This document shows, one piece after another, positions 28,117 through 35,063 of a stretch of DNA of 35,079 nucleotides. The first letter of the stretch is position 1, and every line of letters begins with the position of its first letter. Both the position numbers and the translations under genes were made by a program. The stretch is taken from the NCBI GenBank assembly GCA_902766965.1, contig CACXFJ010000118.1, positions 1 to 35,079 on the forward strand, read 5' to 3'. Under the pieces are notes generated by a model that made no database searches, was not told the origin of the DNA, and saw nothing but the letters and a program-made list of their open reading frames with translations. This stretch comes from an uncultured Eubacteriales bacterium (GTDB taxonomy: Bacteria > Bacillota > Clostridia > Christensenellales > DTU072).

Positions 28117-29043
28117 ATGAAAATATACGACGACGCAACTCTACTTATCGGTCACACTCCGCTCGTAAGACTGAAAAGACTTGAAAAAAAGTATAATCTT
28201 TGCGGAAAAATCTACGCAAAAGCGGAATTTTTTAACCCCGGTTCTTCCGTAAAGGACAGAGCGGCGTTATTTATGATTAACGACGCCGAAAACAAAGGAC
28301 TTCTCAAAAAAGGCGGAACGGTCGTCGAACCCACCAGCGGCAACACGGGGATAGGTCTTGCCTGGATATGCGCCGTAAGGGGATACAGACTTATATTGAC
28401 CATGCCCGAAACGATGAGCGCGGAAAGGCGGAAACTCGCCAAAGCGTACGGAGCGGAAATAGTCCTTACTCCCGGTGCTCTCGGTATGCAGGGAGCTGTC
28501 GACAAGGCGAAAGAATTAGTAAAAGAACTCGACGCCTTTATGCCCGACCAGTTCGCAAATCCCGCCAACGCGTTAGCGCACGAACGGACCACCGCTATCG
28601 AGATACTCGAAGACACCGACGGCAAGGTAGATTATTTCGTGTCGGCTTTCGGCAGCGGCGGAACGGTCACCGGAGTAGGCAAAGTCTTAAAAAGAGAACT
28701 CCCCGACGTGAAAGTAATCGGTGTAGAACCCGCTTCTTCTCCGCTTTTATCCGAAGGACGTGCAGGAAAACATAAAATTCAGGGGATAGGAGCGAACTTT
28801 ATTCCCTCCCTTCTCGACGTAAAGGTAATGGATAAAGTCGTTACCGTAAGCGACGAAGAAGCCTTCGAATACGCGAGAGATTTGGCAAAAACCGAAGGCC
28901 TTTTGTGCGGTATAAGCAGCGGAGCCGCCCTTTGCGCCGCTTGCAAAATAGCCGCCGACGGCGAGAATAAAGACAAAAATATAGTAGTCGTGTTCCCCGA
29001 CACAGGCGAAAGATATTTAAGTACCGACCTTTATTCGCTGTAA
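28117..29043 (+). CDS. cysK: Cysteine synthase A (O-acetylserine sulfhydrylase)
   Basis: IGHTPLV, NPGSSVKDR (PLP Lys), EPTSGNTG, HKIQGIG, GISSGA, PDTGERYLST. Confidence 0.96.
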   Translation: MKIYDDATLLIGHTPLVRLKRLEKKYNLCGKIYAKAEFFNPGSSVKDRAALFMINDAENKGLLKKGGTVVEPTSGNTGIGLAWICAVRGYRLILTMPETMSAERRKLAKAYGAEIVLTPGALGMQGAVDKAKELVKELDAFMPDQFANPANALAHERTTAIEILEDTDGKVDYFVSAFGSGGTVTGVGKVLKRELPDVKVIGVEPASSPLLSEGRAGKHKIQGIGANFIPSLLDVKVMDKVVTVSDEEAFEYARDLAKTEGLLCGISSGAALCAACKIAADGENKDKNIVVVFPDTGERYLSTDLYSL

Positions 29044-29060
29044 TTTATTTTAAGACGTCG

Positions 29061-29117
29061 GCGAAGCGAAAGGATATTCGGATTACGCCTTGACGTTTCG
29101 GCTACGCTCAACGTGAC
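29061..29117. repeat. Degenerate REP-like palindromic element
   Basis: GCGAAGC-GAAA(29061-29071) pairs imperfectly with TTTCGGCTACGC(29096-29107), followed by TCAACGTGAC. Confidence 0.4.
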
Positions 29118-29145
29118 GATAAGGCAAATAACGAAAAAATCGACG

Positions 29146-29171
29146 AAAAAGCCCCGAATTTCGGGGCTTTC
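29146..29171. terminator. Intrinsic terminator between convergent cysK and metQ
   Basis: AAAGCCCCGA-ATT-TCGGGGCTTT; longer U-tract on the minus strand. Confidence 0.85.
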
Positions 29172-29191
29172 GCATTATAAGCGGATAGTAA

Positions 29192-30097
29192 TTATTTGAA
29201 TTTCCATTCGGTAGCTTTTCCGTAGTAAATTCCGAGAGGTTCGTAATGAACTTTGCACGCGGCGAAAAGGCTTGTTTTACCGGTGTAAGTTTCGAGATAG
29301 GGGATATGTTGGAAATAGTTGGCGTCGTATTCTCCGTTAGCTACGGCGTCGTTTTGCAAGGTCCAGTCGAGGACGGTGACTTTAAGGTCGTAGCCTTTGT
29401 CGGCAAGGAGAGCCTTGACGGAACCGTTAAGAACTTCCGCATGGGGCGTGTCGGACGCGCAGACTTTTATTTCCGTTCCGTTTCCGTTTACGGTAGCGTC
29501 TTTGGTTTCTCTCAAATCTATCTGGGTGGAAGAGTCGCAGGTCATCGCGCCCAAGTATTTATTTTTGAAGTAGTCGGACACTTCCGCGGACAGAAGCGCG
29601 TTCGTAAGAGCGTCTATTTTCTGTTTGTATGCGGCGTCGTTTGCGTAATCGTTCTTTCTGGCGGCAAGCACGTTGGCTTTGCCGGATACCTGAACGGGGT
29701 CGTTTTCGACTTCGGCTCTCTTATCGGCGGATAGTTTGCCGGTGTAAGCGGTGTTGCAGGGAAGGAGAGCGTAGTCGTAGTCGCCCATGGACGGTACGAG
29801 TAAGTTCTCGGCGACCAAAGTAACTTTGACGGTACCCGCCTTGTTTACCCACGATTTGCTCGCTTCTGATATGTTCAGTTTGCCGTCGTCGGTTACGGGA
29901 TAGTTTTTGCCTTCGGCTTCTTTCGAGATTACGCCTTTCGCTTCGAGAAGTTGGAAAGCGCGGACGGCGTTGGATTCGTCGTCGCAGATTTCGAAAGTAA
30001 TCGCTTTTGAATTTTTACACGCGGCAAGAGCGAACACGGAAAAAACACATACGACGCACAGCGTCAGGACGAGAAGGGCAGAGGTTAGTTTTTTCAT
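29192..30097 (-). CDS. metQ: MetQ/NlpA-family methionine-binding lipoprotein, circularly permuted
   Basis: Lipobox LAAC27; MetQ motifs DESNAVRAFQLL, ASDTPHAEVL, DANYFQHIPYL and VHYEPLGIY all present but in swapped order. Confidence 0.88.
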   Translation of the reverse strand: MKKLTSALLVLTLCVVCVFSVFALAACKNSKAITFEICDDESNAVRAFQLLEAKGVISKEAEGKNYPVTDDGKLNISEASKSWVNKAGTVKVTLVAENLLVPSMGDYDYALLPCNTAYTGKLSADKRAEVENDPVQVSGKANVLAARKNDYANDAAYKQKIDALTNALLSAEVSDYFKNKYLGAMTCDSSTQIDLRETKDATVNGNGTEIKVCASDTPHAEVLNGSVKALLADKGYDLKVTVLDWTLQNDAVANGEYDANYFQHIPYLETYTGKTSLFAACKVHYEPLGIYYGKATEWKFK

Positions 30098-30765
30098 TTT
30101 AATATTCTCCTTTTGTCGATTTTTTTGGCAAGTTTAAGTCCTAATTCCTGTATGAGTTGGACGATGACTACGACTACGGCAATGAGTATCCAAAAGACGG
30201 ATTGTTTTAGATAATCTCCCGTATGTCTGGTGTAGTAGGTGTATATTCCCGAAATAAGTCCGCCCGCGCCTATATTGTACGCAAACGAAGTGTAGCCTAT
30301 TATGCTTACCGCGACTACCGCCGCGCCCGTAACGAGCGACGCTTTGGATTCGGGGAGTAAAACTTTGGTTATTAACTGGAAATCGGTCGCGCCGAGGGAA
30401 CGAACGGCTTCTATTTCGCCGGCGGGTACTTCGGCAAGCGACTGTTCGACCATTCTCGAAACGAAACCGAACGCGCAAACGGTAAGGGGAATAAGGATAG
30501 TGTACCATTCTCCCGTGCCGGTGCCGAACCAGGCTCGCGACCAGGGTATACACAGCACGATTATTATAAGGCAGGGGACGGAACGCAGTATGTTCACGAT
30601 AAGTCCCACTATTGCGTTAAGCCACTTGCAGGGTTTAAGTCCGTTTTTGCTCGTCACGTTGAGAAGAATTCCGCAAGGAAGACCGAAGAGGTAGGCAAGA
30701 GCCGTCGAAAGGACGGTCATAAGCAGAGTTTCTCCGCTAAGTAAAAGAATATCAGCAAAAGTCAT
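30094..30765 (-). CDS. metI: Methionine ABC transporter permease
   Basis: ETLLM, VNILRSVP, SRMVEQSL.EV..GEIEAVRSLGA (EAA loop), IGAGGL. Confidence 0.92.
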   Translation of the reverse strand: MTFADILLLSGETLLMTVLSTALAYLFGLPCGILLNVTSKNGLKPCKWLNAIVGLIVNILRSVPCLIIIVLCIPWSRAWFGTGTGEWYTILIPLTVCAFGFVSRMVEQSLAEVPAGEIEAVRSLGATDFQLITKVLLPESKASLVTGAAVVAVSIIGYTSFAYNIGAGGLISGIYTYYTRHTGDYLKQSVFWILIAVVVVIVQLIQELGLKLAKKIDKRRILK

Positions 30766-31744
30766 CGCTGTCCACCTCCTCGAATTTTACGCCGTTTTCG
30801 TTAAGATAAGCGGAAAGTTTTTCTATATCTTCGTCGTAATACGGCAGTCTGAATATCGTCTGTCCGTAGATTTTATCGTTTATTACTTTCGTCTCCGCGT
30901 AGATTATGGACAGAAGAATATTACATTCCTGTATGATATTCGTTATTATGGGTTTGTCGGTAGACCCGTCGAAAACGAGCTTAACGAACTTCTCTCCCCT
31001 GAAGCCCGCGTTTATTTTGCCGGCATAGATAAGTTTTTTCGCAATAGGCTCTTTGGGTGACAAAAATACGTCTTGCAGATACCCTTGCGTCACTATTTCG
31101 GAGTGGTCTATTATAGCTACCTTGTTGCAGACGGCTTCGATTACCGACATCTGATGAGATATTATTACTATCGTAAGACCGAGTTTTTTGTTGAGTTCTT
31201 TAAGTAATTCCAATATGGATTTCGTCGTTTCCGGGTCGAGAGCGCTCGTCGCTTCGTCGCATAAAAGGATTTTCGGATTAGTCATAAGAGCGCGGGCGAT
31301 AGCCACTCTCTGTTGCTGTCCGCCCGACAGCTGCGACGGATAGGCGTCGAGTTTGTCGCCGAGTCCCACCGTCTCCAAAAGTTCTTTCGCGCGTGCTTTT
31401 CTTTCGGCGTCTTTATGCAGTTCTCCCGCGAGTTCTACGTTTTTCAGTACGCTCCGTTGTTGCAACAGGTTAAACTGTTGAAAAATCATCGACACGCTTT
31501 TGCGTATTTCACGCAGCCTTTTTTTGTCGGCGGAAGTGAGGTCTTCGCCGTCGATGAGAATTTTGCCGCAGGTGGGGCGTTCGAGTAAGTTTATGCACCT
31601 GACGAGCGTAGATTTTCCCGCCCCCGACAGACCGATTATTCCGTAGATATCGCCGTCTTCGATTTTAAGATTGACGTCGTGCAGGGCGACGAATTTTTCT
31701 TTCGCTCCGCCGTAGGCTTTGCTTAGATTCTGTATCTCTATCAT
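30752..31744 (-). CDS. metN: Methionine ABC transporter ATP-binding protein
   Basis: GLSGAGKSTLVRCINLLERPT, YPSQLSGGQQQRV, LLCDEATSALDP, C-terminal NIL-like domain. Confidence 0.95.
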   Translation of the reverse strand: MIEIQNLSKAYGGAKEKFVALHDVNLKIEDGDIYGIIGLSGAGKSTLVRCINLLERPTCGKILIDGEDLTSADKKRLREIRKSVSMIFQQFNLLQQRSVLKNVELAGELHKDAERKARAKELLETVGLGDKLDAYPSQLSGGQQQRVAIARALMTNPKILLCDEATSALDPETTKSILELLKELNKKLGLTIVIISHQMSVIEAVCNKVAIIDHSEIVTQGYLQDVFLSPKEPIAKKLIYAGKINAGFRGEKFVKLVFDGSTDKPIITNIIQECNILLSIIYAETKVINDKIYGQTIFRLPYYDEDIEKLSAYLNENGVKFEEVDSDDFC

Positions 31745-31937: not shown

Positions 31938-31967
31938 AGTGTATCATTAAGAAATACGCCTTGTCAA
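31938..31967 (-). promoter_or_regulatory. Sigma-A promoter of the leader-metNIQ transcript
   Basis: Minus strand TTGACA(31967-31962)-18 bp-TACACT(31943-31938) with TG extension. Confidence 0.7.
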
Positions 31968-32414: not shown

Positions 32415-35063
32415 ATGAAAAAAGGGGTATTTCAAATAGTGACGTTAGCTGTGTTCGTGATACTTCTGAGTGTGACGCTATGCGCGTGTTCGCTACTCGG
32501 TAGCGGTTCCAAAGATAAAGACAAAGACGGAAATGTCGATAAAAAACTATCCGGAATATTCCCGACGACGGAAACGCCTAAATGGAGTTCGGCGTCCGGT
32601 GAAATTTTCGAATACAGAGAAGAATCCGACGCAGATACGGGCAGTCAAAAAATTATAGTCACCGGATTGAAGAAAAAGACGGAAAAACAAGTAGTGATAC
32701 CCGACGGCGTAAACGAGATAGCCGAAAATGCTTTCACCGGGTGTAATAATATTATAAGTCTTGTAATATCGGATACCGTGACGAGTATAGGAAGAGCCGC
32801 ATTCTACGAGTGTACGGGACTCATCGGAGTGTCCGTAGGCAAGAACGTATCGAATATAGGCGACGAAGCCTTCGGCGGATGTTATAAGCTCGTTGAAGTA
32901 TATAATAAGTCGTCCCTCGATATTATGGCAAGAAGCGGAGATAACGGAAATATAGGGTATTACGCGAAGAACGTGTATGACAAAGCGGACCTAACGAGAC
33001 TTGACGTAGACGATAACAATTATATAAGTTATATAGACGGCGACAAAAAGACTCTTATGGGGTACTCCGGCACGCAGACCGAACTTGCTTTGCCCGACGG
33101 AGTGACCGATATCTATCATTACGCATTTGCTTTCAATGGTTCCGTCAAGAAAGTGACTATGAGTAAGGACGTTATTATGACGGGAGACGGTGTGTTTACC
33201 GGTTGCACCGCTCTTAAATACGTAGAGTTCAGCGGAAAAATAAAGAAAATCAGCCGCGGCGCATTCTATGGGTGTACCGCCCTTAACGGCATAGCGATAC
33301 CGGAGACCGTGACGAGCGTCGGCGAATATGCTTTCGCTTTATGTACCTCTCTGACGAGAGTTATTGTCGGAACAAACGTAAAGAAAATAGAGGAAGCCGC
33401 TTTTTATAATTGTTACAAACTCGTAGAGGTATATAACAAATCCTCTCTCGATATCAAGGCGGCAGCCGCAAGCGACAACGAGCCGAGCAGCGCGGTTGGC
33501 GATAACGTAGGTTACGGCGACATAGGAAAATACGTTAAATACGTGTACAAAGAAAGCGGCAAGAGCAGACTTGCTACCGACGAAAAAGGTTTTGTCGTTT
33601 ATGCCGACGGAATAAACAAGATACTCGTCAATTATATCGGAGAAGAAACCGCTCCCACTTTGCCGTCCGAAGTTACGGAAATAAACGATTACGCATTCTA
33701 CGATTGCGATAAGATTACCGAAATAAAGATTCCGAGCGGTGTGACGAGTATCGGGAAATCCGCCTTTTTAGGATGCGACGAACTTACCGAAGTAACCATT
33801 CCTGCCGAAACGACGAGCATAGGAAGAGACGGAATTTTAAGAGATTGTCCTAAATTAGCCAAGGTTTCACTTCCGACGTCGGCTATAAAGGCGTTGAACG
33901 GAGCAAGAGTAAAGAAAGTAGTCGTTACGAGCGGAGAGACGATACCGGAAATGGCATTTTCTGGACTGAAAGAAATGACGGAAATAATTCTCCCAGCCGG
34001 CTTGAAGGTCATAGGCGACGGGGCTTTTTACGGCTGTACCGGCTTGACCGACGTAATTATTCCCGATACCGTGACGGGCATAGGCGACGGGGCTTTTTAC
34101 GACTGTACCGGCTTGACCGACGTAATTATTCCCGATACCGTGATGGTCATAGGCTCCGCTGCGTTCGCAGGCTGTGAAGGAATGAAAGCCTTATATTATA
34201 AAGGGACGGCTGAACAGTGGAATAAAATAACGGTGTCAGGAGAAATCGGCACAGAAGCGAAACGTTACTTCTATTCGGAGACCGCTCCGACTAAAGAAGG
34301 AAATTATTGGCGCTACTTCGACGGTAAAGTTTTCGTTTGGGAAACGGTACACATTCATTCTTTCGGCGAATGGACGGAGAAGACGCCCGCTACCTGCGTG
34401 ACGGATAAAGTAGAACGCAGAGAGTGTCTCTCTTGCGGCGTGGAGCAGACGAGAACGGTAGAAAAAACCGCGTTGGGACACGAGTTGGAACGACACGAAG
34501 CGCAAGTGCCCACTTGCACCGAAGTAGGGTGGGACGAGTATGAAACCTGTACCCGTGGCGGGTGTGACTATACTACAAGAAAAGAAAAACCGGCATTGGG
34601 ACACGACTACGATGAGAACGATATTTGCAGAAGATGTAGAGAAGAAAAACAAACGGACGTGAGCAAGTTTACGTTTGAATACGATGCAGAACAAGGCGGA
34701 TATACCATTATAGGATATGCCGGAGAAGAAGCAGATGTAATTATTCCCAAAAAGTACAATGACGGAACGAATGGCGTAAAGGATGTCAAAGCGATAGCTA
34801 ATCATGTTTTCAATAACAAAGTTGGACTAATCAGTGTAAAAATTCTTGACAACGTGACGAGTATCGGTGCAAATGCGTTCAGTGGTTGCGTCAGTCTTAT
34901 AGACGTTCACTATAACGGAACGAAAGAACAATGGAACGAAATAACGAAAGCCGAAGATATAGGATTTAACGACGGAGTTACGAGGACGATTCATTGCACC
35001 GACGGAACTATAGTAATAGGCGACGTTAGCGGTGGCGGAAGCGAAGAAGCGGTAGGCGAATAA
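32415..35063 (+). CDS. BspA-like leucine-rich-repeat (LRR_5/TpLRR) surface lipoprotein with Cys/His-rich modules
   Basis: Signal peptide with lipobox-like LCAC; many IPxxVTxIGxxAFxxCxxL repeats; ATC..CxxC..ALGH modules; SD GGAGG. Confidence 0.9.
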   Translation: MKKGVFQIVTLAVFVILLSVTLCACSLLGSGSKDKDKDGNVDKKLSGIFPTTETPKWSSASGEIFEYREESDADTGSQKIIVTGLKKKTEKQVVIPDGVNEIAENAFTGCNNIISLVISDTVTSIGRAAFYECTGLIGVSVGKNVSNIGDEAFGGCYKLVEVYNKSSLDIMARSGDNGNIGYYAKNVYDKADLTRLDVDDNNYISYIDGDKKTLMGYSGTQTELALPDGVTDIYHYAFAFNGSVKKVTMSKDVIMTGDGVFTGCTALKYVEFSGKIKKISRGAFYGCTALNGIAIPETVTSVGEYAFALCTSLTRVIVGTNVKKIEEAAFYNCYKLVEVYNKSSLDIKAAAASDNEPSSAVGDNVGYGDIGKYVKYVYKESGKSRLATDEKGFVVYADGINKILVNYIGEETAPTLPSEVTEINDYAFYDCDKITEIKIPSGVTSIGKSAFLGCDELTEVTIPAETTSIGRDGILRDCPKLAKVSLPTSAIKALNGARVKKVVVTSGETIPEMAFSGLKEMTEIILPAGLKVIGDGAFYGCTGLTDVIIPDTVTGIGDGAFYDCTGLTDVIIPDTVMVIGSAAFAGCEGMKALYYKGTAEQWNKITVSGEIGTEAKRYFYSETAPTKEGNYWRYFDGKVFVWETVHIHSFGEWTEKTPATCVTDKVERRECLSCGVEQTRTVEKTALGHELERHEAQVPTCTEVGWDEYETCTRGGCDYTTRKEKPALGHDYDENDICRRCREEKQTDVSKFTFEYDAEQGGYTIIGYAGEEADVIIPKKYNDGTNGVKDVKAIANHVFNNKVGLISVKILDNVTSIGANAFSGCVSLIDVHYNGTKEQWNEITKAEDIGFNDGVTRTIHCTDGTIVIGDVSGGGSEEAVGE
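34010..34154 (+). repeat. Intragenic 69-bp tandem repeat (one LRR unit), 2 copies plus a partial third
   Basis: Units start at 34010 and 34079 and are 66/69 nt identical; a third CATAGGC starts at 34148. Confidence 0.92.

Follow-up and report, generated by a model that had tools for sequence, protein, structure and literature searches.

Circularly permuted binding proteins are known in two families other than MetQ, and the MetQ case is, as far as found, undescribed. TpMglB-2 (Tp0684) of Treponema pallidum is described as a "Type Ic/Cluster Bc" circularly permuted glucose-binding lipoprotein; its homologues occur mostly in treponemes and Gram-positive gut bacteria, and the authors speculated on tethering (PMC4990184). 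The glycine-betaine–binding proteins OpuAC and ProX are mutual circular permutants according to CPSARST, and permutation by duplication is known for lectins, swaposins, methyltransferases, and others (PMC2395249). For MetQ itself, lipidation is reported to be important for the interaction with MetNI (PMC8416018). No description of a naturally permuted MetQ/NlpA was found in the literature searched, which left supplements and most subscription journals outside its scope, where a mention is possible. The gene dealt with here lies at 29192..30097 on the minus strand of a 35,079-nt contig from an uncultured Eubacteriales bacterium (CACXFJ010000118.1; this whole stretch is referred to as the window). 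It very probably encodes a working binding lipoprotein of a MetNI-type methionine ATP-binding cassette (ABC) importer with a circularly permuted chain.

An earlier note on this DNA had located the open reading frame (ORF) correctly, without giving its strand, and had described it as intact, with the two halves of MetQ swapped and each present once. The product, P0001, indeed comprises 301 aa plus stop in an intact frame that contains each half a single time. A signal peptide with the lipobox LAAC (aa 1–27; 30017..30097, on the minus strand like all parts of the gene) was read from the sequence; by the lipobox rule, Cys27 is the predicted lipidated residue, and it is retained in at least 90% of the 33 permuted proteins aligned. 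It is followed by the normally C-terminal MetQ part (aa 33–196; 29510..30001), which comprises the lobe with R46, N115, and N142, the segment leading back to lobe 1, and the conserved tail TCDSSTQIDLR, and which corresponds to columns 128–294 of a 296-column model built from canonical members. The old C- and N-termini are joined by the 13-aa stretch ETKDATVNGNGTE (aa 197–209; 29471..29509). The normally N-terminal part (aa 210–292; 29222..29470; columns 29–121) comes next; it forms the lobe with W245, F262, H264, and Y267, and ends with the hinge strand HYEPLGIYY. A new C-terminal tail, GKATEWKFK plus stop (29192..29221), stands in place of GKA..GTAVT.GK, the loop through which the canonical chain reaches the next strand. 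After Cys27, the chain thus runs from the C-terminal 165 residues of MetQ/NlpA over the 13-aa junction to the N-terminal 85 residues. A linker of ∼20 aa had been proposed between the halves; a linker does exist, but the first part of what had been assigned to it, TCDSSTQIDLR, is the conserved C-terminal tail of canonical relatives, and only aa 197–209 are new.

The order of the halves was apparent in four independent comparisons. The PF03180 (Lipoprotein_9) profile matched P0001 with 95.4 bits (gathering cut-off 27; E 3.9e-27) in two stretches, the better of which paired aa 210–294 with positions 1–87 of the 236 in the profile. A six-frame scan of the genome placed profile positions 101–231 at 29546–29992 and positions 1–87 at 29216–29470, both on the minus strand and in one frame, with the 101–231 part upstream. 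A single colinear full-length PF03180 alignment was not obtained; the HMMER comparison suggested in the earlier note gave two partial matches in reversed order, as it had foreseen. When the Protein Data Bank (PDB) was searched with phmmer, aa 207–294 corresponded to residues 10–99 of 4ib2 and aa 36–185 to its residues 113–248, and the pairing was likewise reversed for 4got and 4k3f. All 22 PDB matches aligned the C-terminal part of the query to the N-terminal region of the respective chain, which indicates that no solved structure has the permuted order. BLASTP against the canonical relative P0026 paired aa 34–196 with residues 131–294 (76% identity) and aa 204–296 with residues 29–121 (80%), again swapped; against mature P0026 doubled head-to-tail, a single colinear alignment was obtained (aa 34–296, 75.4% identity over 264 columns with three gaps). 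As Pfam, genome scan, PDB search, and BLASTP concur, P0001 is confirmed, at the level of sequence, as a natural circular permutant of MetQ.

An AlphaFold2 (AF2) model of the permuted protein, computed from the alignment of 33, reached a predicted local distance difference test value (pLDDT) of 90.8 and a predicted template modeling score (pTM) of 0.80. The junction scored between 91 and 97 and is, therefore, predicted to be ordered, whereas the signal peptide (aa 1–27) stayed below 60, as expected. Canonical P0026, modeled as a control, had a pLDDT of 90.3. Compared by listing their elements, both models contain the same strands and helices in rotated order, and the prediction thereby supports the circular permutation that had been proposed. 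A type II binding-protein fold, with two alpha/beta lobes and a hinge, is seen in the model and in its VIA matches to type II binding proteins (PstS-like, OpuAC, HisG, and LAO; Z 9–12 over residues 31–301); the top Foldseek match was OpuAC (2b4m; E 3.5e-7, VIA Z 11).

According to these data, signal peptidase II would cleave the precursor, the lipid would be attached to Cys27, and five residues further on the chain would enter the normally second lobe, where R46, N115, and N142 would take the amino and carboxyl groups of the ligand. It would return to the first lobe via the usual C-terminal helices and tail, and the ordered 13-residue junction would link the old termini. The chain would then pass through the normally N-terminal part, with W245, F262, H264, and Y267 as the presumed pocket for the thioether, and end with the hinge strand HYEPLGIYY re-entering lobe 2. 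The new ends would lie in the surface loop that canonically joins HYEPLGIYY to the next lobe-2 strand (TFEICDD), so that the Venus-flytrap fold and the binding site would be kept. The membrane tether would be shifted from the lobe with the aromatic pocket, as in canonical MetQ, to the other lobe. This agrees with the proposal of a relocated lipid anchor: Cys27 precedes the strand and helix with R46, and, judged from motif spacing, this is the lobe responsible for the amino and carboxyl groups of the ligand.

The permuted metQ is the last gene of a metN–metI–metQ operon. The metI permease gene (BPD_transp_1; 30094..30765, minus strand) has a stop that overlaps the metQ start by 4 nt, and the metN ATPase gene (ABC_tran plus a C-terminal NIL domain) lies at 30752..31744 (minus strand). 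Upstream of metN, TTGACA-18-TACACT (31938..31967, minus strand) resembles a promoter as a match to the consensus only. Downstream of metQ and convergent to the operon is the gene for a PALP enzyme, read as cysK-like, with that of a Crp-type regulator beyond. Between metQ and cysK, a terminator-like GC-rich hairpin with a T run (29146..29170, minus strand) was read from the sequence, being absent from the consensus-scan list; contigs from RNA libraries end around it, at 29146, 29154, and 29178, which is a weak hint that the transcript ends there. No RNA family, including SAM (S-adenosylmethionine) and T-box riboswitches, was matched in the window at gathering score. In the 96%-complete genome, the permuted metQ is the sole PF03180 gene, and both of the 2 (out of 24) other species of the genus in which the family was found have the permuted form only. 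The metNIQ operon is thus patchy within the genus, and this MetQ subfamily occurs in 6 of 401 genomes of the order (two permuted, four canonical), a distribution that suggests transfer or frequent loss.

Purifying selection on the gene was evident: the Nei–Gojobori ratio of nonsynonymous to synonymous changes (dN/dS) of the mature protein was 0.08–0.11 against the five comparators with unsaturated dS and was similar in both halves, and the junction had no nonsynonymous change compared with the two nearest species. Among the 33 colinear permuted proteins aligned, R46, N115, N142, N260, Y261, and Q263 are invariant, and F262, H264, and Y267 are retained in at least 90%. The ligand residues of NmMetQ are R156, N213, N238, Y81, F98, H100, and Y103 (PMC6739813). 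Mapped by motif spacing, not by a residue-numbered alignment, R46, N115, N142, F262, H264, and Y267 correspond to R156, N213, N238, F98, H100, and Y103, and W245 replaces Y81; six of the seven methionine-contacting positions are, hence, identical, and the seventh is still aromatic. We infer from the sequence that the ligand is an amino acid, most likely methionine, and would expect the protein to dock on MetI. Five cysteines are conserved in this extracytoplasmic protein and its subfamily (in VCASD, ACKVHYEP, EICDD, LPCNTAY, and MTCDSS), and typical MetQ is without them; they may form disulfides or bind metal in an anaerobe.

The homologue search gave 793 matches, of which the best 120 are listed (248–308 aa); the following counts refer to these and the query, 121 in total. 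The order seen in the window (type A; columns 128–294, then 29–121) was found in 25 (P0001–P0024 and P0100), a second permuted form (type B; columns 98–294, then 29–95) in two (P0038 and P0060), and the canonical order in 94. In type B proteins, the first strand is LFATCKVHYEPLGIYYGKA, and the chain stops at PYLESY. A third type (P0126 and P0132) consists of columns 175–295 followed by 26–153. The junction QIDLR-(E/T)xKxATVxGNxTx-IKVCAS is common to every type A and type B protein and suggests that the fusion occurred once. In an IQ-TREE phylogeny of 80 rows, the 12 type A rows formed one clade (Shimodaira–Hasegawa-like approximate likelihood ratio test [SH-aLRT] 98) within canonical members of the subfamily. 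Type A was also present in seven species-representative genomes (L011–L017; Christensenella sp. and metagenome-assembled genomes [MAGs] of Christensenellaceae or Clostridia), in six of which metN–metI lies directly upstream of metQ. With 24 other clusters of the same order among the best 120 homologues, which the earlier note had proposed to look for, the gene is less singular than supposed there: it is an ordinary member of a clade, and the phenomenon is broader.

Both type B proteins are mosaics. Their signal peptide, first strand, loop, and most of the C-half are nearest to canonical proteins; from the end of the C-half over the junction into the N-core, they are nearest to type A. Because segment identities show this for both, their placement by FastTree (P0038 inside type A, P0060 beside canonical P0055) was not relied on. 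In one type B gene (L018), the same reading frame beyond the stop after ..PYLESYLK still encodes the terminal strand of type A, intact and with its specific tail (..CKVHYEPLGIYYGKATEWKF and two stop codons), which suggests, for this one locus, that the gene once had that strand at both ends and that the 3′ copy was silenced. The stop of P0060 is at the same codon position, and the break point of the permuted metQ seems to have moved in the type B lineage. A search of the 401 genomes of the order with P0060 gave no further type B locus; only type A or canonical genes, in six genomes, were retrieved. P0024 (271 aa) starts like type A and ends with PYLSEYK like type B; its contig has 1,094 nt, and the protein may just be truncated where the contig ends.

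Tandem duplication followed by trimming, the origin already suggested in the earlier note, is the best-supported route to the permuted gene, as judged from the length of the junction, the forms found elsewhere among MetQ proteins, and the remnant in L018. A canonical tail joined to a mature N-terminus would give 11 aa, and the junction has 13; its last residues (GN.TE-IKVCAS) resemble the canonical stretch behind the lipobox, C-GNNAKT-IKVCAS. P0139 (554 aa) is an in-frame tandem of two complete MetQ copies that are 94.7% identical over 244 aa, and the permuted protein P0151 (C–N) can be aligned without rearrangement, also across the junction, to the central part of P0139 (aa 36–292 versus 156–408, 62% identity). 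P0135 (402 aa) has the order N–C–N, and P0141 and P0220 (both C–N) are colinear with its C–N part (60% and 74%). P0230 (442 aa, with a Tat signal) is C–N–C, and in an alignment of 301 columns its first 297 residues match permuted P0220 with 97% identity. The tail of canonical P0173 resembles the junction of the P0141 group. Tandem forms of the kind that the earlier note had proposed to look for are present, as predicted metagenome proteins, in other MetQ subfamilies (P0139), but none was found in that of the gene among the best 120 homologues or by the search for longer ones. In this scenario, metQ would have been duplicated in tandem, the copies would have been fused in frame with loss of the second signal peptide, and the N-terminal part of the first and the C-terminal part of the second copy would then have been removed. 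One such event may account for the clade of the window because all of its members share the junction; in other MetQ lineages, the same process would have taken place independently.

Some candidates for intermediates were discarded. P0122 and P0123, from the search for longer homologues, are fusions of SBP_bac_3 and Lipoprotein_9 and not tandem MetQ; the long frames in G565, G664, G220, G404, and G715 turned out to be two fusions of SBP_bac_3 with canonical MetQ, two spurious upstream extensions, and one canonical MetQ. Behind the stops of 13 other permuted genes, no clear remnant was seen, and the flags of one TAA were profile matches running a few residues past the stop. Single lipoproteins of ∼550–580 aa that combine an SBP_bac_3-type amino acid–binding domain with a complete canonical MetQ (P0122, P0123, and P0252; L130, 1546–3285, and L131, 1567–3288, both on the minus strand) are encoded next to metN–metI.

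Permuted MetQ proteins also occur outside this subfamily. An exhaustive representative search gave 1079 matches, the best 150 of which are listed, and among the matches listed the distant proteins P0141, P0143, P0145–P0147, P0151, P0206, P0218, and P0222 were colinear with the permuted query. A Pfam scan of the 401 genomes of the order detected the PF03180 family in 111, and a split, reversed match in 18 of these; the sequence is of the window type in two (G000 and G011) and of a more typical MetQ type in the other 16. All 16 typical-type genes have the order C-then-N, 15 of them with metN and metI directly after metQ, and one (L104) in the order metN–metI–metQ. At the level of the class, the family was found in 164 of 399 genomes scored; in an estimated 42 of the 164, the best match was partial (E 1e-42 to 1e-51) with at least two matches. 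The 17 rows of these that were displayed were fetched, and all proved to be C-then-N genes, 15 with metN directly adjoining. The large permuted group (L091–L123) usually has the order metQ–metN–metI; the window type and its canonical relatives have metN–metI–metQ. In the IQ-TREE phylogeny, the other permuted proteins were scattered among canonical ones, and the approximately unbiased (AU) test, with groups defined by architecture and run after the tree had been seen, rejected a single clade for all 23 permuted rows (p=2e-6) as well as for the nine rows from other families (p=0.0037). Judged from these sequences, the permuted order seems to have arisen independently several times in MetQ lineages.

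Two further peculiarities were encountered among these matches. In P0138, P0183, P0186, P0207, P0259, and P0269, the C-terminal part of a permuted MetQ is preceded by an unrelated N-terminal sequence; these six probably result from chimeric assembly or from gene calling at the edge of a contig. Near-identical metNIQ loci of the Clostridia type were present in bins labeled Bifidobacteriaceae, Bacteroides, Alistipes, Parasutterella, and Slackia (L020, L027, L030, L037, L041, L044, L048, L058, L064, and others), labels that look like binning errors.

Several results weigh against a working methionine-binding MetQ that was permuted via duplication. The whole-protein cut-offs of NCBIfam were missed (TIGR00363, 31.3 versus 228.85 bits; PRK11063, 25.8 versus 374), with a match of aa 207–271 only, which is the expected outcome for a permuted chain. 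Among the Foldseek and VIA rows listed for the permuted model, led by OpuAC, HisG, and PstS, no MetQ entry was found; as MetQ structures account for roughly the first 30 of the rows listed for the model of canonical P0026 (E to 7.8e-21, TMt up to 0.80), this is read as an effect of sequential alignment. Compared with typical MetQ, the subfamily has CDD for PND before the Arg helix, Trp for Tyr, an insertion of ∼35 aa in lobe 2, and the five conserved cysteines, and the ligand could therefore differ. The tandem, N–C–N, and C–N–C proteins are predicted metagenome proteins from a context-free library. Neither tandem-fused nor partly trimmed forms were found in the subfamily of the window by the search for longer homologues or among the best 120 of 793 matches, and a three-frame translation of 28991–29230 revealed no remnant of a lost copy behind the stop codon in the window. 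Finally, contigs from RNA libraries may contain contaminating DNA.

A window drawn from a draft genome (1.67 Mb in 141 contigs, 96% complete) could owe the swapped order to assembly or binning, that is, to a chimeric contig. This explanation is refuted by spanning contigs and retains a negligible probability: 19 run rows, belonging to 13 studies whose records all indicate animal gut, contained the 2-kb stretch; a contig of 36,395 nt (X8) spans 28900–30900 with five differences, a second one (X5, possibly the source sample) also spans the whole stretch, and a contig from an RNA library (X16) covers 29178–30900. No joints, insertions, or deletions were reported in the spanning contigs, so that both junctions are covered independently and the misassembly considered in the earlier note did not occur. 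Furthermore, the order recurs in 24 other 90%-identity clusters and in seven other species genomes, and selection operates across the junction. That the gene is a decaying, nonfunctional leftover of a duplicated gene is very improbable. Duplication and trimming imply that nonfunctional intermediates could exist, and the family is patchy in the genus; however, the frame is intact, dN/dS is ∼0.1 in both halves and the junction, ligand residues are conserved, the stretch is present in RNA libraries, and the gene is the only MetQ of its genome, inside an intact metNIQ operon. A small but appreciable chance is left for a permuted binder of the MetQ fold with a ligand other than methionine, e.g., another sulfur amino acid. 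The changes near the site (CDD, W245, and the lobe-2 insertion), the adjoining cysK, and the lack of a SAM or T-box riboswitch match in the window would fit such a ligand, whereas the methionine-contacting positions, the MetN-type NIL domain of the ATPase, and the absence of a second MetQ from the genome speak for methionine.

How the halves came to be exchanged can be debated similarly. A permutation without a tandem duplicate, either by gene fission and re-fusion in the opposite order or by recombination of halves from two metQ genes, has a slim chance: it would explain why the subfamily yielded no tandem intermediate in the searches described above, and the type B mosaics, which resemble canonical genes most in the 5′ part and type A most in the 3′ part, imply that recombination reshapes these genes. 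Yet the length of the junction, and in part its sequence, corresponds to that of joined canonical termini, the nearest canonical group is the same for both halves of P0001 (72–80% identity), fused tandem forms exist elsewhere in the family, and adjacent half-genes were not seen in the loci parsed. A single ancient permutation as the source of every permuted MetQ, with the gene in the window as a divergent member of that lineage, is highly improbable. The window clade and the large Clostridia group do share the loop in which the break lies; against a common descent, the 12 rows of the window clade are monophyletic and nested in canonical members of their own subfamily, junction sequences differ, operon order differs (metN–metI–metQ here, metQ–metN–metI there), and a single clade was rejected by both AU tests.

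Duplication with trimming, repeated in several lineages, remains the preferred explanation, and a wider generalization of it can be put forward tentatively, although it is rather doubtful. MetQ might be a hot spot of repeated and ongoing circular permutation in lipoprotein-anchoring (monoderm) Clostridia: trimming in various ways after tandem fusion would lead to the same C-then-N order, break points would migrate via forms with a redundant element at both ends, and fixation would result from selection on the tether or the hinge. The type B gene L018 fits such a migration: it is most similar to canonical genes in its 5′ part and to type A in its 3′ part, and it still carries the old terminal strand behind its stop. 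If true, there would be selection for a tether on the amino- and carboxyl-binding lobe or for freeing one hinge strand, and either change would alter the opening of the tethered protein or its docking on MetI.

The permuted proteins matter for annotation, as they fail the curated full-length models and yet seem to be the sole MetQ in many gut Clostridia (the permuted form is carried by 18 of the 111 family-containing genomes sampled from the order and by about 43 of the 164 from the class); naming is inconsistent (permuted P0038 is a "hypothetical protein," canonical P0066 MetQ/NlpA). With canonical, tandem, N–C–N, C–N–C, and C–N forms, and three break points in one subfamily, permutation by duplication becomes traceable stepwise. 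The tether seems to have moved to the other lobe several times, and pairs of permuted and canonical proteins could reveal how tether position or hinge connectivity affects docking and opening. Such pairs might, in addition, indicate where MetQ tolerates being cut when it is used as a methionine sensor. Elsewhere in the window, 32415–35063 (plus strand) encodes a predicted lipoprotein of 882 aa that has five regions of BspA-type leucine-rich repeats (PF13306, E 2.2e-94) and is rich in Cys around residues 640–700.

With canonical MetQ/NlpA (PF03180; 4IB2, 4GOT, 4K3F, NmMetQ 3IR1/6CVA, and E. coli MetQ 4YAH/6CVL), P0001 shares the family, the ligand-contacting residues (Y81 being W245), the partners MetN (with NIL domain) and MetI, and anchoring as a lipoprotein. 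It departs from them in its rotated chain, with the lipid anchor ahead of the other lobe and 13 aa connecting the old termini; what is the first hinge strand in canonical MetQ forms its C-terminal end. Canonical members of the same subfamily (P0026, P0025, and P0047; MAGs of Christensenellales and other Clostridia) are 68–80% identical to P0001 per half and share TCDSSTQIDLR, LDWTxQND, the cysteines, the metN–metI–metQ order, and, in some cases, similar signal peptides; they have the N-then-C order, and the loop of 10–12 residues (GKA..GTAVT.GK) that is cut in P0001 is intact in them.

P0001 resembles TpMglB-2 in being a lipid-tethered ABC binding protein with a natural permutation, and TpMglB-2 retains ligand binding. 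TpMglB-2, however, has a type I fold, belongs to a sugar-binding family, and has gained a fourth hinge crossing, whereas P0001 is of type II. The permuted segment of TpMglB-2 has almost no similarity to the canonical form, and its route is obscure there; for the permuted MetQ, canonical relatives are ∼75% identical and intermediates are visible. OpuAC and ProX are, like P0001 and its canonical relatives, of the type II fold and related by permutation, and OpuAC is the top sequential structural match of the P0001 model; they belong to another family with another ligand, the permutants are less than 24% identical to each other and 12–14% to P0001, and the passages considered describe no intermediates. 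For lectins, swaposins, methyltransferases, and others, the same route is proposed, namely, tandem duplication, in-frame fusion, and loss of both outer parts. Unlike these, MetQ displays N–C–N–C, N–C–N, C–N–C, and C–N within one family, together with a locus at which the break point seems to have shifted.

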